Source: an uncultured Clostridia bacterium
GTDB taxonomy: Bacteria > Bacillota > Clostridia > Oscillospirales > CAG-272
DNA length: 64,000 bases
Reading direction: 5' to 3'
Assembly: GCA_947625805.1 (NCBI GenBank)
Contig: CANQPT010000003.1
Span: 8,247-72,246, forward strand
The translations under genes and the position numbers were made by a program. Under the pieces are notes generated by a model that saw only the letters and a list, made by a program, of their open reading frames with translations, was not told where the DNA came from and did not search any database. This document shows, one piece after another, positions 644-27,023 of this stretch. Position 1 is the stretch's first letter. Each line of letters starts with the position of its first letter.

Positions 644-1846
644 ATGAAACTCAATTTGTCAACCAACCTGCGCAGGCTTCGCACGGCCAAGGGTCTGACG
701 CAGGAAAATCTTGCCGTGCTGCTGGGCGTGACGCACAAGGCCGTCTCGCGCTGGGAGACCGGAGCCGCCTATCCCGATATCGAACTGCTGCCTACGCTCG
801 CTGAGCACTTTGGCGTATGCATCGAGGAATTGCTCGGTACGACCAATGCCGAGCGGGAGCGGGCGAGTGAAGAATACTATGCGCGCCTGCGCCGCATTCC
901 CAAAGAGGAAACCGATGCGGCGATCGGGCTTTTGCGGGAAATGCATCGGGAATTTCCACGGGACACCAACGTGATTTTGCTGCTTTGCGATTCGATCAGC
1001 GATCAGGTGATCGAGGAGGGAAAAACCGAACTTCTCGACCAACTGCGCCGATATACCGGCGAGATCATCGCGCTGAACGGCAGGGACGACAGCGACGCCC
1101 AATGGGCCATCCAGATGCTGATCGACGCGGAAGATGAGGAACACGTGCAGCCCTTGCTGGAAACGTATACCGCGACTTTCGGACGCTCCCGCGAACTGGT
1201 TTTGGAATACCGCTATCTGGTGCGGCATGAGTGGGAAAGACACGCTCTCGAGCACCAGAAGAATCTTTTGCACGCCGTTCGCATGGCTTACTACCGCCTT
1301 GGAAAAAACGACCCGCGAAATGAGGATGCACACGACTGTTTATGGACCGTTCAAAAGGAACTTGCCCTCATTGATCTTTTGACCGATCATGCCGATCCCA
1401 CCGTGCCCGATTTGTGGTTTGAGCCGCGCTTTCACGCCATGATCGGTTTCTCCTGTTATCTTGCCGCAACAGGAGAAAAGGAAAGGGCTCTCTCAACCCT
1501 TGAGGCGGCAGTCGATCTGTACGAAGCGTTTTGGGCGCTCCCCGACGGCACGCGGCTCACCTATCGCTGTTACCGGCTGGATCAGTTGGGGGGCACGGTC
1601 GAGCATACGGTTTACATCCGGTATGACGCCGGGCAGGACGGACAGGAGAGGACGTTTGAGTCGCGGCGGGTCGTGCACGATCTGGGGTACGGTGAGTCGA
1701 TCGATCCGGAAAGAGATCATGAGCCGTTGATCGCCCGACAGGGCTGGGCATGGTTTGATGCCATCCGCGGCGAAAAACGCTATCAGGACTGTGTCGGGCG
1801 CATGAAAAAATTGATTATTGATGCCCCCGACGCAGGACAACGATGA
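644..1846 (+). CDS. XRE-family HTH regulator with long helical (TPR-like) C-terminal region
   Basis: N-terminal LRRLRTAKGLTQENLAVLLGVTHKAVSRWETG is a Cro/C1 HTH; AAGGAG RBS; about 330 further, mostly helical-looking residues. Confidence 0.85.
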   Translation: MKLNLSTNLRRLRTAKGLTQENLAVLLGVTHKAVSRWETGAAYPDIELLPTLAEHFGVCIEELLGTTNAERERASEEYYARLRRIPKEETDAAIGLLREMHREFPRDTNVILLLCDSISDQVIEEGKTELLDQLRRYTGEIIALNGRDDSDAQWAIQMLIDAEDEEHVQPLLETYTATFGRSRELVLEYRYLVRHEWERHALEHQKNLLHAVRMAYYRLGKNDPRNEDAHDCLWTVQKELALIDLLTDHADPTVPDLWFEPRFHAMIGFSCYLAATGEKERALSTLEAAVDLYEAFWALPDGTRLTYRCYRLDQLGGTVEHTVYIRYDAGQDGQERTFESRRVVHDLGYGESIDPERDHEPLIARQGWAWFDAIRGEKRYQDCVGRMKKLIIDAPDAGQR

Positions 1847-1959
1847 TGAAATGACGGTATGTGCAAACCAGCTTTCCCCTCGAGAGAAAGACGGGTACGG
1901 TGCACGCCGTTTGTCTGCGTACGAATAAAAAGCATACCGAGCACTCCTCGCTCCGTATG

Positions 1960-1994
1960 AAAAAAGGGAGGACACCCTTCGGGCGTTCTCCCTT
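1960..1994. terminator. Hairpin terminator between convergent XRE gene and uidA
   Basis: AAGGGAG-GACACCC-ttcg-GGCGTT-CTCCCTT with an A6 run on the left (U tract for the minus strand). Confidence 0.55.
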
Positions 1995-2006
1995 GAAATT
2001 TTTGCT

Positions 2007-3686
2007 TTAGTCGAGTTTCCCGTACAGTTCTTTGAGCGCGTAGTAGGCGAGTTTGGGCTGACGGTGCTCGTTCACAATGCCCTTGTTGTTAAAACTGCGC
2101 GCACGGTTGAGCTCGTTTTCCGAGCGGATGTCGCAGTACTGCCACGGGTAGGTACCCACGATGCCCGGCTCGGCGATGCACAGTTCGGTAACGCCTTTGA
2201 GTAAAGACGCCTGGTATTCCTCAGTCCACTTGTTGCCGTCAAAGCTGGTATATCCGTAAAGCCCTGCGGCGCCGTACTCGGAAAGAATGATCGGCTTGTC
2301 CGGCACGCCCGCCTCGGTCAGGCGGGTGCGAAGCCAAGGGATGAATTTCTTCCAGCCGTTCACGTCCTCGCCATACCAGCCGATATACTTGTTGACCGAC
2401 ACCACGTCAACCAGATCGAGGCAAATATCCCATTCGATCACGTTGCTTGCGAAGGTGATCAGACGGTTGCCGCCGTGCGCGCGCATATAATCCGCCAAGA
2501 GAATGCTGAACGCACGTCCCTCGTTGGTATTGGTAGCGCACTCGTTGGTCAGCCCCCAAATGACGATCGACGGGTGGTTGTAGTAGTGCTCGGCGCTCTC
2601 CTTGTGCATGGTCAGACTGCGCTGTATGACCACCTCGTCGGCCATGCGGTCTGCGGGATAGCCCCACAGCGGGATTTCGCTCCAGAAGATCAGACCTTCC
2701 TCGTCTAACAGATCGAGAAATACGCGGGAGTTGGGGTAATGCGAGCCGCGAATGGCGTTGCAGTGCATTCCCTTGATGACGTCCACGTCCCGCTTGCCTA
2801 ACTGCGGCGGTACGGCAAAACCCCAGTCCGGGTGTTCCTCGTGTCGGTTGACGCCCTTGATGAAGATCGGGCGGCCGTTGAGGTGAATTTCCTGTCCCAC
2901 GACCTCGATCTTACGGAAACCGATCCGATCGTAGAGATCATCGCAGCAGGTATACACGCCCACCGAATAGAGGTTGCCTTTGTAAATATCCCATAAACGG
3001 ATATGTTCCACTGCGATCGGACCAAGCACGACGGTTGTAGGCTTATCGGGAGTTACGGTGACCTCGGCCTTTGCTGCATCCTTGCCGTCAAAGGTAAAGG
3101 TGAGCGGTACGCTCTTTTGCTCGAATGCGCAAAGGGTGACCGTCGCGGTGAGTTGTGCATAGGTCCGGTCCTCCGAGAGGGTGTAGTCGTAGTGGCAGAG
3201 GTCGATATAGACCGCAGGCAGGGTCGACAGCTCGACGTCGCGGATAATCCCGCCGTAGTGATACCAGTCCACATAGGGCAGGGGAATGGTCTGCGAATTG
3301 CTGGATGCGTCTACATATACCGTGATGCGGTGTGCGCCCTCGGGTGCGGTGTGGGCAAAGCGGAAAGCGGAAAATCCGCCGTAATGATCGCCTAACAACT
3401 CGCCGTCAAAATACACCTTGGCATAGCCTGATACCGCGCCGAATTCCAGCAGCAGATTTCCGCCCGCGGTGAAAATGTCCTTTTGATACCAGCAGATGCC
3501 GAAATGATGGAAGAGATCCGGCTCGTTGTTCCAGACCGACGGCACGATGACCGTGCGCGCCTCTTCCGGCAGGGATTTGTTCCATTCCTGCGCCTCGCCC
3601 ACCCCGTCAAAATCGGGCATCAGTTTCCAAGCGCCGTTCAGCGAGGTGACCGTGCGCTTTACGTGTTGCGCAAATAATCTTGTCAA
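2007..3686 (-). CDS. uidA: Beta-glucuronidase, GH2
   Basis: GH2 motifs GVNRHE, RGSHYP, acid/base TNE, nucleophile LSEYGA and GUS-type NNKG motif; adjacent to uxaC; upstream TTGACA-17-TAAACT promoter and AAAGGA RBS before a TTG start. Confidence 0.88.
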   Translation of the reverse strand: MTRLFAQHVKRTVTSLNGAWKLMPDFDGVGEAQEWNKSLPEEARTVIVPSVWNNEPDLFHHFGICWYQKDIFTAGGNLLLEFGAVSGYAKVYFDGELLGDHYGGFSAFRFAHTAPEGAHRITVYVDASSNSQTIPLPYVDWYHYGGIIRDVELSTLPAVYIDLCHYDYTLSEDRTYAQLTATVTLCAFEQKSVPLTFTFDGKDAAKAEVTVTPDKPTTVVLGPIAVEHIRLWDIYKGNLYSVGVYTCCDDLYDRIGFRKIEVVGQEIHLNGRPIFIKGVNRHEEHPDWGFAVPPQLGKRDVDVIKGMHCNAIRGSHYPNSRVFLDLLDEEGLIFWSEIPLWGYPADRMADEVVIQRSLTMHKESAEHYYNHPSIVIWGLTNECATNTNEGRAFSILLADYMRAHGGNRLITFASNVIEWDICLDLVDVVSVNKYIGWYGEDVNGWKKFIPWLRTRLTEAGVPDKPIILSEYGAAGLYGYTSFDGNKWTEEYQASLLKGVTELCIAEPGIVGTYPWQYCDIRSENELNRARSFNNKGIVNEHRQPKLAYYALKELYGKLD

Positions 3687-6927: not shown

Positions 6928-9132
6928 ATGAGATTTCTAAGGTACCGGCATCTGATGCAGTGCTCGCTTGCATTTTTGATCTCTCTCGGCATATTCGCAC
7001 ATACCCGCCTGAGTGTCGCGCTGACGGCTGCGGCAGTGTGTGCGGTCGGTCTTGCAGTGAGCATAGTCATATGGTTTTTTCGGCACACTGCGGCGACAGC
7101 CCAGGCGTGTTTTCTTTTTCTATGCTCCCTTGTCGGTGCGCTGCTTGCGTATTTTGTTTTCTTCCGCTATCCTGCCGGGATCTATGCCGAGGCAGGGCAG
7201 ACCCGCGAGGTCAGTCTTACGGTGGAAGATACGCTGTCTGAATCGGTCTATGCCTCGGAGTATCGGGTGCGCGTGGACGGCACGCAGGATATTCCGGCTT
7301 TTCGCGCAATCCTGCGGTGTGACTACGCCGCGGGGTACAGCCGGGGTGATCGGGTGACCGGAAATGTGACCTTTGAAGAATTTGAGCGGGATATCAACGG
7401 CTACCCGGAGCGGGATTATCAACTTTCACAGGGTGTGTTGACCGCTTTGCGCGCGAAAGAGGGGGACCTCGGCACGGCAGGAAGAAAGGAATCTTTCAGG
7501 TTTGCTTTTGCAAATGCAAGAGACGCCCTCTGTGACCGGCTGGATCGCCTGCTCTCCCCAAAGGCTGCCGGACTTGCCCGCTGTCTTTTGCTGGGTGACC
7601 GCAGTGAGTTGTCCGCCGCCGTCAGACGGGATTTCAGACGGCTGGGTCTTTCCCATATGCTGGCAATGTCCGGTCTGCACCTGACCGTGCTGTTCGGTGC
7701 ATTGTATATGCTCATGCGCATGCTTGCCCTGCATCGCTCGGTCGCAAACGGTATTTTGGGCGTATGTCTTGTTGCGTTTATGATGTTGACCGCATTTCCC
7801 GCTTCCCTTACCCGCGCCGGCTGCAGTATGATCCTTATTATTCTGTGTTACTATATCAAAAAGCGTCCGGATCCTGCGACCGTGCTTTGCTTTGCGGTTG
7901 CGCTTATCTGTCTTTTCGATCCCTACTCGGCCTTTGATACCGGTCTGCAATTATCCTTTGCCGCCACCCTCGGGATTGTGACGGTGGTACCTCTTGCGGA
8001 TAAAGCCCTGTCCGAGCGGGAGTTGCCGCGCGGGGTGAGCAAAGTACTGCTTGCCCTGTTTACCGGTGTGACGGCTCTGACCTTTACACTGCCGATCAGC
8101 GCGTATACTTACGGCGTCTTTTCCTTTGCCGGAGTGCTTTCCACGCTGCTGTTCACCTTGCCTTTCAGCGCCATGCTCTGTCTTTTTCCGCTGACGCTTT
8201 TGTTCGGGCAGATCCCGGCGGTAGGCGATCTGCTTGTCTTTGCGTCCGACCGCCTGACAGAATATACCGTCGGATTTGCAGACTGGTGTGCCGATTGCTG
8301 CGACCTTACGGTTTCGCTTTACTATCCCTTTGCCCTGTGGGCGGTGTTTGGCTTTTGCGTCGTATTTGCGCTGTTTGTGATCATAGCCCCGAGAAAACCG
8401 CTTGTCTGGCTCGCACCCCTGCTTATCTTCAGTCTTGTGCTGTCCTGCGGGGTCGGCGTTTACGGGGCACGCACCCAAGACCGTTTTCAGGCGGTGGTGT
8501 GTACGATCGATCAGAACGATTGTATCGGCGTCCGCTCGGGCGCATCGGTGGGAATTCTCGATATCACAAACGCATCTTCCGCTCCGTCCGCGCGCATTCG
8601 ATATCTTAGCCGGACCGAGTTGTATGCAACCGAATACGAATACTATATCCTTGTAAACTACTATAAGAAGAGCGCTTGGTTCCTTTCATCGCTTTTACAA
8701 AACGAGAAAATTGCGTGCGTCTATTTACCGGCTGACGCGGCAAAAGAAAATTCGGATGCGCTTGAGCGGATGGTTTCCGGGTACGGCGCGCAGGCGGTCT
8801 TTTATCGTTATGGAGAAACCTTTATCGCGGGCGGGGTAGAATATCGGATCGCTCAGCCATCCTATCTTGACCGTTCCAAACGCCCGATCCACAAGATCAC
8901 CGCTTGCGCGGGCGGCAAAACTCTGTGCTATCTGGGCGCTGCGTATTTTGAAACCGGGCAGACCGCGCCCCAAGCCGATGTGCTGATTGCCGGAGGGTAC
9001 GGACCGCTATACAAGCAGGAGTTTGCCTGTGAGAGGCCGATATTTGTCTGCAATCTGGCCGAGGAGTTTTGCCAGGGGGAAAATTACACGGTATATCGGG
9101 ACCGGACCTCTGTTATACTAAATAATGATTGA
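6928..9132 (+). CDS. comEC: ComEC/Rec2 competence DNA-uptake channel
   Basis: LLLGDRSEL, SHMLAMSGLHL, GLQLSFAAT motifs; multiple TM helices; C-terminal beta-lactamase-like region is degenerate. Confidence 0.9.
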   Translation: MRFLRYRHLMQCSLAFLISLGIFAHTRLSVALTAAAVCAVGLAVSIVIWFFRHTAATAQACFLFLCSLVGALLAYFVFFRYPAGIYAEAGQTREVSLTVEDTLSESVYASEYRVRVDGTQDIPAFRAILRCDYAAGYSRGDRVTGNVTFEEFERDINGYPERDYQLSQGVLTALRAKEGDLGTAGRKESFRFAFANARDALCDRLDRLLSPKAAGLARCLLLGDRSELSAAVRRDFRRLGLSHMLAMSGLHLTVLFGALYMLMRMLALHRSVANGILGVCLVAFMMLTAFPASLTRAGCSMILIILCYYIKKRPDPATVLCFAVALICLFDPYSAFDTGLQLSFAATLGIVTVVPLADKALSERELPRGVSKVLLALFTGVTALTFTLPISAYTYGVFSFAGVLSTLLFTLPFSAMLCLFPLTLLFGQIPAVGDLLVFASDRLTEYTVGFADWCADCCDLTVSLYYPFALWAVFGFCVVFALFVIIAPRKPLVWLAPLLIFSLVLSCGVGVYGARTQDRFQAVVCTIDQNDCIGVRSGASVGILDITNASSAPSARIRYLSRTELYATEYEYYILVNYYKKSAWFLSSLLQNEKIACVYLPADAAKENSDALERMVSGYGAQAVFYRYGETFIAGGVEYRIAQPSYLDRSKRPIHKITACAGGKTLCYLGAAYFETGQTAPQADVLIAGGYGPLYKQEFACERPIFVCNLAEEFCQGENYTVYRDRTSVILNND

Positions 9133-25168: not shown

Positions 25169-25876
25169 ATGGCCCTGTTTGTGCTGGCTGACCCGCATTT
25201 GTCCTTTGACACGGACAAGCCGATGGACGTTTTCGGTGACCGATGGCGGGATCATGCAAAGAAACTCAAGGCAGGCTTTGAGGCGGTGGTGACCGACCAG
25301 GATACGGTGGTTATCCCGGGGGATTTGTCATGGGGAATCAATCTTGCAGAGGCGCAGACCGATCTTTTGTTTCTTGCCTCGCTTCCCGGGCATAAAGTGC
25401 TTTCCCGCGGCAATCACGATTATTATTGGAATTCGCTCTCCAAAATGCGGGAGTTGTTTGCCGCCCACGGACACACCAACATCGAATTTTTGCAGAACAA
25501 CGCCATCCGTGCGCAGGGTGCGGTGCTGGTTGGCTCACGCGGTTGGTTTGCCGACCCGGCGGATATGCCCCGCGACGCAGACTATGCCAAGATTGCCGCA
25601 CGTGAGGCGTTGCGGTTGGAGATGAGCCTACAGGCCGGGCAGTCGGTCGCAGACGGGCAAGAGATGATCGCATTCTTTCATTTCCCGCCCGTGTTCGGCG
25701 ATTTCGTCTGTCAGGAAACGGTGGAACTATTAAAGCAATACGGCGTGCGGCGGGTCTATTACGGGCATATCCACGGCCTCTACCGCATTCCGCGGGTGCG
25801 CGTGTACGAGGGCATCGAGTTTCACATCATTTCGGCCGATTATCTGAATTTTGTCCCGGAACTGATCCGGGTGTAA
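25169..25876 (+). CDS. Calcineurin-like metallophosphoesterase
   Basis: ADPH, GDLSWG, GNHDY, FFHFPP, YGHIH. Confidence 0.9.
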   Translation: MALFVLADPHLSFDTDKPMDVFGDRWRDHAKKLKAGFEAVVTDQDTVVIPGDLSWGINLAEAQTDLLFLASLPGHKVLSRGNHDYYWNSLSKMRELFAAHGHTNIEFLQNNAIRAQGAVLVGSRGWFADPADMPRDADYAKIAAREALRLEMSLQAGQSVADGQEMIAFFHFPPVFGDFVCQETVELLKQYGVRRVYYGHIHGLYRIPRVRVYEGIEFHIISADYLNFVPELIRV

Positions 25877-25948
25877 CAAAGAAACGCTTGTGATAATCGC
25901 CATCGCGGATCTCCGGACAGATCTCGCGCTTGATGCGGTATACAGAAA

Positions 25949-26001
25949 AATCCCCACAGTGTGTGATCCCGAATCGTTTCGGAGATCTTTCTGTGGGGAT
26001 T
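25949..26001 (-). terminator. Long hairpin terminator for minus-strand genes
   Basis: AATCCCCACAG (25949-59) pairs with CTGTGGGGATT (25991-26001), inner stem GATC-CCGAA/TTCGG-A-GATC; A run on the left is the U tract on the minus strand. Confidence 0.7.
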
Positions 26002-26309
26002 AAAGTTTTGTAGCTTTTTTATAACATTTTTATTTATTCTTATTTTTTTCAGCAATACTGAGTTGTGAAAAGATAACACTAAACAAACTAGGTATTACGG
26101 CATATCCTGCATTTACTTCTCCTTTATTTATCAGTACGTAACCTGCACCAATAAAAGTTAATATACAAAATACAAATGATAATATTCTGAATATTTTCTT
26201 TTTTTGCATAAAATTTCACCTCTTACAAATTGCTGTTTGTTTTCCAATCTTATTATACTACAAAGTTGATAATATTGAAAGTATCTATTATAATCAAACA
26301 GGGGGATTA
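25995..26309. mobile_element. AT-rich single-gene insertion flanked by 8-bp direct repeats (GGGGATTA)
   Basis: GGGGATTA at 25995-26002 and 26302-26309; hand-counted 60-nt lines inside are 18-30% GC versus GC-rich flanks; contains promoter, RBS and ORF; no recombinase. Confidence 0.6.
26030..26209 (-). CDS. 59-aa two-TM membrane protein (not in ORF track)
   Basis: Hand translation MQKKKIFRILSFVFCILTFIGAGYVLINKGEVNAGYAVIPSLFSVIFSQLSIAEKNKNK*; GAGGTG RBS 7 nt upstream; TTCAAT-16-TATAAT promoter at 26252-26279. Confidence 0.8.
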   Translation of the reverse strand: MQKKKIFRILSFVFCILTFIGAGYVLINKGEVNAGYAVIPSLFSVIFSQLSIAEKNKNK

Positions 26310-27023
26310 TCGTAAATTGTGATTGACCAACCACAGCACTGCGTAGATGATCGGCTGGTGCAGCAGGTAGAAGATCAGACTGTGCCGTCCGACAAAGGCA
26401 AGCGGCGAAAAGGTCGCAGTCATCACCCGGAAATCCGACAGGTGCGCCTCGATTGCCCGATAAAGAAAATATCCGCACAAGAATAAGAACAACCACGGAA
26501 ACAGCGGGAAGTAGTCGCCGGAGGAAAAATCGGCAAACGGAAATCCGAGATAGGCGGTCAGATAATTGCAATAGAGCCGATTCGGTCCAAGGCCGACGCT
26601 CGTGATATACGCGCATACCTCATAGAGCACAAAGCACACAGGAATCATAGGAACGGGCGGTAGTTTTTCAAACAGGCGGGAGAGCGGAATCAGAATGAGC
26701 ATACAGCTTCCCAGCAGGGTGAGAATGCCGAAGATCACAGCCGTGGCGGGGGAGGCGATCAGAGTGACGACGGTGACCAGCGCGCCTGCGCCGAACACGG
26801 TCAGCGCCCGCCGCAGCCGATGGGAGCCAAGCGACCAGCAAAAGCCGGACAGAAGAATAAAGCCGCAGCAGATACATCTCTGCCATATCCTGCCGGGAAG
26901 AGCGCGATACCACGGCGCCGTAAAATCAAACAAATACACCATGTCCCAAAGCGTATGGTAAGCGATCATATTCAGCACCAGTATGCCGCGCATACTGTCA
27001 AGCAGTCCGAAGCGTTTTTTCAT
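26307..27023 (-). CDS. DUF1624/HGSNAT-like membrane acyltransferase
   Basis: RFGLLDSMRG, YHTLWD, FILLSG, GVIFGILTLLG-like TM, DYFPLFPW, GRHSLIFYLLHQP; start set at MKKRFG. Confidence 0.85.
   Translation of the reverse strand: MKKRFGLLDSMRGILVLNMIAYHTLWDMVYLFDFTAPWYRALPGRIWQRCICCGFILLSGFCWSLGSHRLRRALTVFGAGALVTVVTLIASPATAVIFGILTLLGSCMLILIPLSRLFEKLPPVPMIPVCFVLYEVCAYITSVGLGPNRLYCNYLTAYLGFPFADFSSGDYFPLFPWLFLFLCGYFLYRAIEAHLSDFRVMTATFSPLAFVGRHSLIFYLLHQPIIYAVLWLVNHNLR

Follow-up and report, generated by a model that had tools for sequence, protein, structure and literature searches.

How does a gene of about 60 codons come to lie between the stop codon of a neighbouring gene and that gene's terminator, with no transposase, recombinase or terminal inverted repeat nearby? 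The question is raised by a locus in a 64,000-nt stretch of DNA (hereafter the window) from an uncultured Clostridia bacterium (assembly GCA_947625805.1, contig CANQPT010000003.1). An earlier note, made from the sequence alone, had described there a self-contained, AT-rich cassette carrying a 59-amino-acid (59-aa) open reading frame (ORF), framed by two copies of an 8-bp sequence and placed immediately downstream of a gene of the PF07786 (DUF1624) family. The reading that we prefer, with a probability of roughly 60%, is that the cassette is a horizontally acquired, stand-alone gene unit, brought in by non-homologous insertion of a short piece of foreign DNA and comparable to a chromosomal "moron". 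The segment is of foreign origin, and its donor lineage is known: AT-rich Bacilli-type bacteria that share the rabbit gut with the host. How the DNA was joined to the chromosome is the more debatable part, and several alternatives have to be weighed.

A foreign segment framed by a target duplication

The octamer GGGGATTA occurs twice, as an exact direct repeat at 25995-26002 and 26302-26309, and base composition changes exactly at the two copies. Measured over 100 bp, guanine-plus-cytosine (GC) content is 21-37% between them vs 50-67% in the flanks, which bears out the abrupt drop described earlier. The enclosed 299 bp (21-27% GC) rank with the lowest-GC stretches when the source metagenome-assembled genome (MAG; G000, 1.87 Mb in 74 contigs, 93% complete, 53% GC) is read in 250-bp windows. 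How often such a repeat would arise by chance was estimated from 400,000 random trials on this genome: for two boundaries spaced 299 bp, an exact 8-mer lay no farther than +/-6 nt from them in 0.5% of cases (0.09% at +/-2 nt and 1.2% at +/-10 nt), and the repeat is therefore best taken as a non-chance target duplication. The empty allele of this site was not found and no boundary motif is common to the homologues, a case for which the earlier note had expected the 8-bp match to be fortuitous; yet these statistics argue that it is a true duplication. The octamer consists of the PF07786 stop codon plus an arm of the terminator stem, and the stop codon is native, because the C-terminus of the protein has a normal length compared with its orthologues. 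When one repeat and the interior are deleted in silico, the site becomes ...AATTTACGATAATCCCCACAG...CTGTGGGGATTTTT, with a predicted ancestral junction that reads ...CTGTGGGGATTATCGTAAATTG... (also written ...TTTCTGTGGGGATTATCGTAAATTGTG...). The reconstruction proposed from the sequence holds: the PF07786 TAA directly abuts a complete hairpin terminator, whose free energy is -29.1 kcal/mol (z = -5.0). The predicted promoter, the GAGGTG ribosome-binding site (RBS) and an intact 59-aa ORF are all present inside the segment. The TTCAAT-16-TATAAT promoter was read by eye and is putative; a consensus scan gave other promoter-like sites, without this pair. No transposase, recombinase or terminal inverted repeat was found nearby.

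The foreign origin of this unit is established by comparison with other genomes of the same habitat. Positions 26020-26232 are 91% identical at the DNA level to loci in 22% GC rabbit-gut Bacilli MAGs of the same study (L025-L032, L042-L047). The self-contained cassette of the earlier note, inserted where a stop codon is followed by its terminator, is thereby upheld and is foreign. The 59-aa family comprises at least 277 homologous proteins with 66-95% identity, and a scan of species-representative genomes returned 124 loci, the closest of which belong to 'Lapin' (rabbit) MAGs labelled Bacilli. At nearly all 124 loci the gene and its 2-kb flanks both have 21-29% GC; since the gene matches local composition there, it is at home in these AT-rich genomes. 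No genome of the same genus has a homologue, and a weak match at best is found in 8 of 300 other genomes of the order. It follows from this distribution that transfer proceeded from AT-rich Bacilli-type donors to the present lineage. The closest relatives of the gene are abundant in the same rabbit samples, in which the donors are 10-60x more abundant than the host. The promoter module (26236-26298) is about 90% identical to contigs of other organisms, found in the same runs at 20-250x depth vs 2-9x for the host. In those organisms this module precedes varied genes, and its other side abuts a divergent gene starting ATGGCACAAAAAAAG; the junction of the divergent MAQKKNNFNY... gene with the promoter module is absent from the fetched loci and from IMG/VR.

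The insertion is real, and the species has it as a fixed feature. Three further samples, assembled independently in ENA (L023, L024, L041), contain one or both junctions with 99.9-100% identity. In Logan contigs from 12 runs of 4 rabbit-gut studies, one junction or the other is spanned in every place where this species has coverage. One of them (X4, 25984-26573) spans both junctions with about 98% identity. The strain that it represents differs by 2 single-nucleotide polymorphisms (SNPs) in the 180 nt of the ORF, one synonymous and one leading to S41G, and by 4 SNPs and 3 one-base indels in the 119 non-coding nt of the cassette, a pattern consistent with constraint on the ORF, small as the numbers are. 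None of the contigs from these runs skips the segment. The search for an empty allele that the earlier note had proposed was thus without success, as it was in an exact-pattern scan of JGI metagenomes, which weighs little because the rabbit-gut sequences recovered were almost all ENA or Logan records. Look-ups of the neighbouring protein returned occupied contigs only, and the same-genus genomes G002 and G004 have no orthologous empty site, the gene order not being syntenic.

These results bear on two explanations that would dispense with transfer altogether, namely that the segment is old native intergenic DNA with an orphan gene and a coincidental repeat, or that it is a chimera assembled from host and AT-rich sequences. 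Many intergenic regions of G000 are indeed AT-rich (65 windows have <30% GC), and a chimeric assembly is conceivable as the donors share the samples. We give these explanations almost no credence. A native origin is at odds with the identity to 22% GC genomes combined with the absence of any same-genus homologue, and with the low frequency at which the repeat arises by chance; a chimera is contradicted by junctions that independent assemblers reproduced across the 12 runs and 4 studies, with strain-level SNPs on both sides. Donor identity, reproduced junctions and repeat statistics together effectively refute both.

Donor gene arrays and further acquisitions by the host

Among the donors, the 59-aa gene has the status of an ordinary chromosomal gene. 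It lies behind many unrelated genes of the same strand, often no more than about 110 nt from their stop codon, and homology between these contexts is lost between -23 and -51 on one side and between +5 and +19 on the other, relative to the ORF. The motif (A)AATAGTAATTTGTA immediately precedes the RBS in many small accessory genes that are unrelated to one another, and at times it is located just 3' of a gene; promoter modules and ORF modules meet at it in differing combinations. The donor arrays are same-strand and rich in XRE regulators (L025-L032 and L139-L148, including contigs C11, C48 and C58 of genome G041 = L143-L146). In G041 (1.7 Mb), 13 exact copies of the motif were counted vs 1 for a control pattern, clustered on the same three contigs. 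We read the motif as a putative shared leader or regulatory element, whose repetition would favour recombination between modules. An integron-like interpretation of the arrays was considered and rejected, since no tyrosine recombinase accompanies them: the 11 PF00589 matches in G041 all lie off contigs C11, C48 and C58.

A scan of AT-rich DNA in G000 for the donor-type leader AATTTGTA followed by an RBS and an ATG gave exactly three matches: the window cassette, C21:9281 and C44:1509. The C21 match is a 247-bp mini-cassette whose encoded protein differs from the 59-aa protein. It has 90-94% DNA identity to the donor arrays from -25 to +10 around its ORF, the same extent as in the window cassette. 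For this second cassette the ancestral allele was recovered: contigs of X6, X8, X9 and X23 join L154:1762 to 2010, an exact skip of 247 bp with 0 shared letters, and X22 has the same junction as a loose end, which brings the empty allele to 5 samples of 3 studies. The occupied allele is known from the MAG and from run X2 only. The C21 insertion is thus a true presence/absence polymorphism that is still segregating, and it carries neither a flanking repeat nor a target duplication. As run X8 combines an occupied window site with an empty C21 site, the window event is the older of the two. Joined flanks were accordingly seen in 5 samples for C21, vs none in 12 runs for the window site. The C44 gene has 78% DNA identity to locus L065 of a rabbit Bacilli MAG and can, judging by sequence, probably be counted as the third one acquired from these donors; its reading frame may be interrupted. 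The family of cassettes that the earlier note envisaged exists in the loose sense that the window cassette, C21 and probably C44 derive from the same donor arrays; what could not be upheld is a shared boundary, as the window and C21 cassettes have no common end motif.

Some further observations concern the same genomes. Diverged homologues of the 59-aa gene form low-GC islets in mid- and high-GC members of the order (G179:C186:136-297, L156; G180:C68:5201-5326, L158), and in G179 the islet starts directly where a same-strand gene has its stop codon, which is also the arrangement in the window. Positions 26006-26042, comprising the last codons and the cassette tail, have a 37-nt match with 3 mismatches to a contig that belongs to another organism and occurs, at low depth, in 7 of 12 runs. 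The match then passes into GC-rich DNA (GGTACGAAACTTTGATGCCCCCTGAAGGAG), and the contig is absent from G000, 60 relatives, JGI and IMG/VR; it may reflect chance similarity in AT-rich DNA or a related insertion elsewhere. A separate repeat with GTCGCTTTGTTGTAATTTGTAAGAAGAACC is present in at least 13 copies in G000 (C6:46235, C13:17493 and the ends of 11 contigs). Most copies lie no more than about 300 bp from a contig end, and the repeat probably marks one end of a multi-copy element at which the assembly breaks off.

Mode of insertion and comparison with known systems

As to the route of DNA uptake, the joining mechanism, expression and function, we infer the following sequence of events. A 299-bp unit was copied from 21-29% GC Bacilli-type bacteria of the same rabbit caecal communities, and as a short DNA fragment would have entered the 53% GC Clostridia-type chromosome by illegitimate insertion, without an element-encoded recombinase. 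The target would have been opened with an 8-bp stagger and filled in, by which GGGGATTA became duplicated. Since the stop codon and the 11-bp stem overlap, an insertion without duplication would damage one or the other, so that selection would filter for the duplicating outcome; the duplication leaves the stop codon of PF07786 as well as the terminator stem unharmed, and a harmless event of this kind could persist. The new gene probably runs from the imported promoter, may receive read-through from PF07786 and probably ends at the host terminator, which now probably serves both genes. A gene for a ComEC-family (PF03772) DNA-uptake channel is located on the same contig as the cassette (window ~7585-8382; G000:C3:15831-16628), whereas the MAG, which is 93% complete, yielded no Ku gene. 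DNA uptake is therefore plausible, and classical non-homologous end joining as the joining route is rejected.

The two cassettes have no end motif, target motif or repeat length in common (8 bp at the window cassette, none at C21), and this argues against a site-specific or transposase system and in favour of short donor DNA having been captured by a non-homologous route. The earlier note had considered site-specific recombination and, should a family exist, a dedicated route of gene capture; that part of its proposal is not borne out, in view of the C21 empty site without a repeat, the differing ends, the single copy and the ordinary nature of the donor gene, and a dedicated cassette-capture system is not supported. 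A non-autonomous mobile cassette, of the kind of a miniature inverted-repeat transposable element (MITE) or an integron cassette, would be mobilised in trans by a transposase or recombinase with an 8-bp stagger, possibly with a preference for hairpin or terminator DNA. It would account well for the exact flanking duplication, improbable by chance, and for an insertion point that lies 1 nt beyond the base of the perfect hairpin. It would also fit the donor gene being a module of about 230-250 bp in many contexts, bounded upstream by AATAGTAATTTGTA, which precedes unrelated accessory genes as well, and the occurrence of the 59-aa family as islets in several higher-GC Clostridia, one of them again right after a same-strand stop codon. 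Against it stand the verified C21 empty site without duplication and the lack of any common end sequence, the absence of the donor motif from the outer ends of the window cassette and the lack of a tyrosine recombinase on the donor contigs with motif arrays. We regard it as unlikely, though the best placed of the alternatives.

The comparison with MITEs and integrons leads in the same direction. Like MITEs, the window cassette is small, lacks a transposase gene and is flanked by an 8-bp repeat resembling a target-site duplication; unlike them, it lacks terminal inverted repeats, occurs only once and holds a conserved protein-coding gene whose donor homologues are ordinary chromosomal genes. 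Its two ends (26003... and ...26301) are not linked by any inverted repeat; a single pair (10 nt, 90%) lies near an end, encloses no more than the promoter part and is one of 16 weak pairs in AT-rich DNA. The only match in the 1.87 Mb of G000 is the locus itself, and elsewhere near-identical copies are confined to rabbit-gut runs with this species. The attC site of integron cassettes is an imperfect inverted repeat of about 55-140 bp located 3' of the cassette ORF. Single small ORF modules, and donor arrays on one strand with a short conserved motif at the joints, recall such cassettes, but there is no attC hairpin and no integrase beside the arrays, and the G000 cassettes have promoters, occupy unrelated sites and share no common outer site. 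Only 27 nt separate the stop codon from the host repeat, the structure and repeat analysis of this tail (26003-26029) revealed neither a hairpin nor an attC-like site, and the donor modules end 5-19 nt past the stop. No recombinase lies within 3 kb in the window, the whole host genome not having been scanned for integrases.

Closest in mechanism to the insertion that we favour is double illegitimate recombination of the short-patch type (SPDIR), which is known in Acinetobacter baylyi as far as the account of earlier work given in a preprint goes (Harms et al. 2016, via bioRxiv 10.1101/2023.11.22.568220). Both involve heterologous DNA, no recombinase or element, variable junctions and no end motif shared between events. 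In its strict form, this alternative supposes natural transformation by degraded donor DNA and annealing at microhomologies during replication, with no staggered break. The presence of ComEC and the absence of Ku would suit it, as would the plentiful DNA of donors that outnumber the host in the same samples, and SPDIR joins fully heterologous single strands at microhomologies (bioRxiv 10.1101/2023.11.22.568220). However, the patches described range from 3 to about 100 bp (bioRxiv 10.1101/2023.11.22.568220), vs 247 and 299 bp here, so that the present inserts are 2.5-3x longer and contain a whole, functional-looking gene. SPDIR usually replaces sequence and leaves no 8-bp duplication, whereas one event here has an exact 8-bp duplication and the other, with zero shared letters at its junctions, has no microhomology; ComEC by itself is no proof of competence. 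The events described here are natural ones, fixed or segregating in a gut population, as opposed to laboratory selections. We consider this alternative unlikely too, and rank it below mobilisation in trans.

The product of an illegitimate insertion, as we favour it, is best compared with a phage moron, defined as a stand-alone unit of differing GC content, with its own promoter and terminator, between the genes of a phage or prophage (Cumby et al. 2012, PMC3594210). As in morons, a small gene with deviating GC (21-37% vs 50-67%) and a putative promoter of its own lies between unrelated genes and is an evident addition compared with relatives. The putative TTCAAT-16-TATAAT promoter is homologous to donor promoter regions; the cassette borrows the host hairpin as terminator and has none of its own. 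Unlike morons, it has chromosomal neighbours of housekeeping type (thrC, metallophosphoesterase, PF07786, GNAT and FbpA-like genes) and lies outside any prophage, matches to PHROGs being insignificant; its donor is another bacterial class, and one of the two cases here has an 8-bp target duplication.

Several points weigh against illegitimate insertion of a foreign fragment. An exact 8-bp duplication is a classic signature of transposases and integrases, and illegitimate insertions more often give deletions or microhomology; the C21 cassette, of the same kind, has no duplication. That two to three acquisitions go back to one type of donor array could mean that transfer relied on a dedicated mechanism rather than random uptake. 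A more far-reaching version of that idea, which we find more doubtful again than the two mechanisms above, holds that AT-rich gut Bacilli contain AATAGTAATTTGTA-led accessory modules that are shuffled among promoters and operon tails, and exported to unrelated bacteria as units of 250-300 bp, by an undescribed mechanism with a preference for stop codons or hairpins; were it true, the window cassette, the C21 cassette and the G179 islet would be products of a new, recombinase-poor gene-cassette system. In the same-genus contigs G002:C37 and G004:C202 the order is thrC-metallophosphoesterase-rplS, with PF07786 orthologues in other contexts, whereas G000 has rplS on contig C28, and its metallophosphoesterase gene converges on PF07786 (window 25876-26307). 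The cassette site is for this reason also a synteny breakpoint, and its history may be more complex than a single insertion. The empty allele of the window site was not found, so that this insertion event is reconstructed and not observed. Finally, no donor with the exact arrangement of promoter plus ORF was recovered, and no RNA run was found to contain the cassette sequence. On balance, the interpretation of the earlier note is partly supported: the cassette is foreign and self-contained, its target duplication is real and similar cassettes recur in G000, but nothing was found that speaks for a dedicated capture route. We take the case as one of minimal single-gene horizontal transfer by illegitimate insertion.

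Layout of the locus, its product and their significance

The features of the locus and of the two related insertions are collected in the table.

Table. Features of the cassette, its site and the related insertions in G000 (window positions unless a contig is named)
Feature	Position	Strand	Remarks
Metallophosphoesterase gene (PF00149)	25169..25876	+	convergent with the cassette side; last gene of the thrC-metallophosphoesterase block
Host intrinsic terminator	25944..26002	-	11-bp perfect stem AATCCCCACAG/CTGTGGGGATT (25949-25959/25991-26001), inner hairpin, then minus-strand UUUUU
Left repeat copy GGGGATTA	25995..26002		outer part of the terminator stem
Inserted foreign segment	26003..26301	-	299 bp, ~23% GC; in sense order promoter module, leader/RBS, ORF, 27-nt tail
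Cassette 3' tail	26003..26029	-	27 nt past the stop; donor homology stops ~10 nt after the stop codon
ORF module	26020..26232	-	from -23 before the ATG to +10 past the stop; 91% DNA identity to donors
Intact 59-aa ORF MQKKKIFRILSFVFCILTFIGAGYVLINKGEVNAGYAVIPSLFSVIFSQLSIAEKNKNK	26030..26209	-	predicted two-helix membrane hairpin
RBS GAGGTG (26222-26217) and preceding CAATTTGTAAG	26217..26232	-	CAATTTGTAAG is a degenerate copy of the donor leader motif (A)AATAGTAATTTGTA
Promoter module	26236..26298	-	putative -35 TTCAAT 26279-26274, 16-nt spacer, -10 TATAAT 26257-26252
Outward promoter-like site TTGATA-17-TATAAT	26266..26294	+	candidate from consensus scan (11/12 matches); imported with the cassette
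Right repeat copy GGGGATTA	26302..26309		holds the TAA of the PF07786 gene (26309-26307, minus strand)
PF07786 (DUF1624/HGSNAT_cat) membrane acyltransferase-family gene	26307..27023	-	C-terminus of normal length compared with orthologues
C21 mini-cassette, 247 bp	G000 C21:9262-9508 (L154:1763-2009)		-10 box, donor leader, RBS, 60-aa two-helix ORF
C44 gene, ~300 codons, ~33% GC	G000 C44: about 1470-2415		between two host terminator-like hairpins; donor-type leader AATTTGTTGCGAATGGAG

The 59-aa protein has no match above the curated threshold in Pfam, NCBIfam or PHROGs, the best sub-threshold matches being MARVEL (16.5 bits, cut-off 32.8), DUF7525 (13.1, cut-off 27) and TIGR01218 (15.3, cut-off 35). 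Its AlphaFold (AF2) model is a two-helix hairpin with helices at residues 3-27 and 35-57 and a predicted local distance difference test (pLDDT) score of 94.8. In type I toxin-antitoxin loci, a small hydrophobic toxin goes with an overlapping gene for an antisense RNA; set against this type, the 59-aa protein is hydrophobic and of small size, with two helices, and the sole promoter-like site on the opposite strand points away. As to its role, we would at best guess at an accessory or protective factor of small size associated with the envelope. The promoter-like site at 26266-26294 faces antisense into the 3' end of PF07786, away from the 59-aa ORF; in donor sequences it stands 5 nt ahead of a divergent gene's ATG and would drive that gene, which is probably leaderless.

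As a rule, horizontal gene transfer is put down to plasmids, phages, transposons or large islands. The present case suggests that single genes of about 60 codons, with minimal regulatory DNA, have crossed bacterial classes as bare fragments of 250-300 bp, and its documentation is unusually good, as the donor lineage has been identified and a fixed as well as a segregating event have been recovered. It offers a natural and datable example of how orphan genes for small membrane proteins may be seeded next to terminators and promoters, and of how the duplication of a stop codon and a terminator arm can render an insertion harmless. It also points to a promiscuous and highly conserved family of proteins with two transmembrane helices, and to the leader motif that precedes such genes in the donors.

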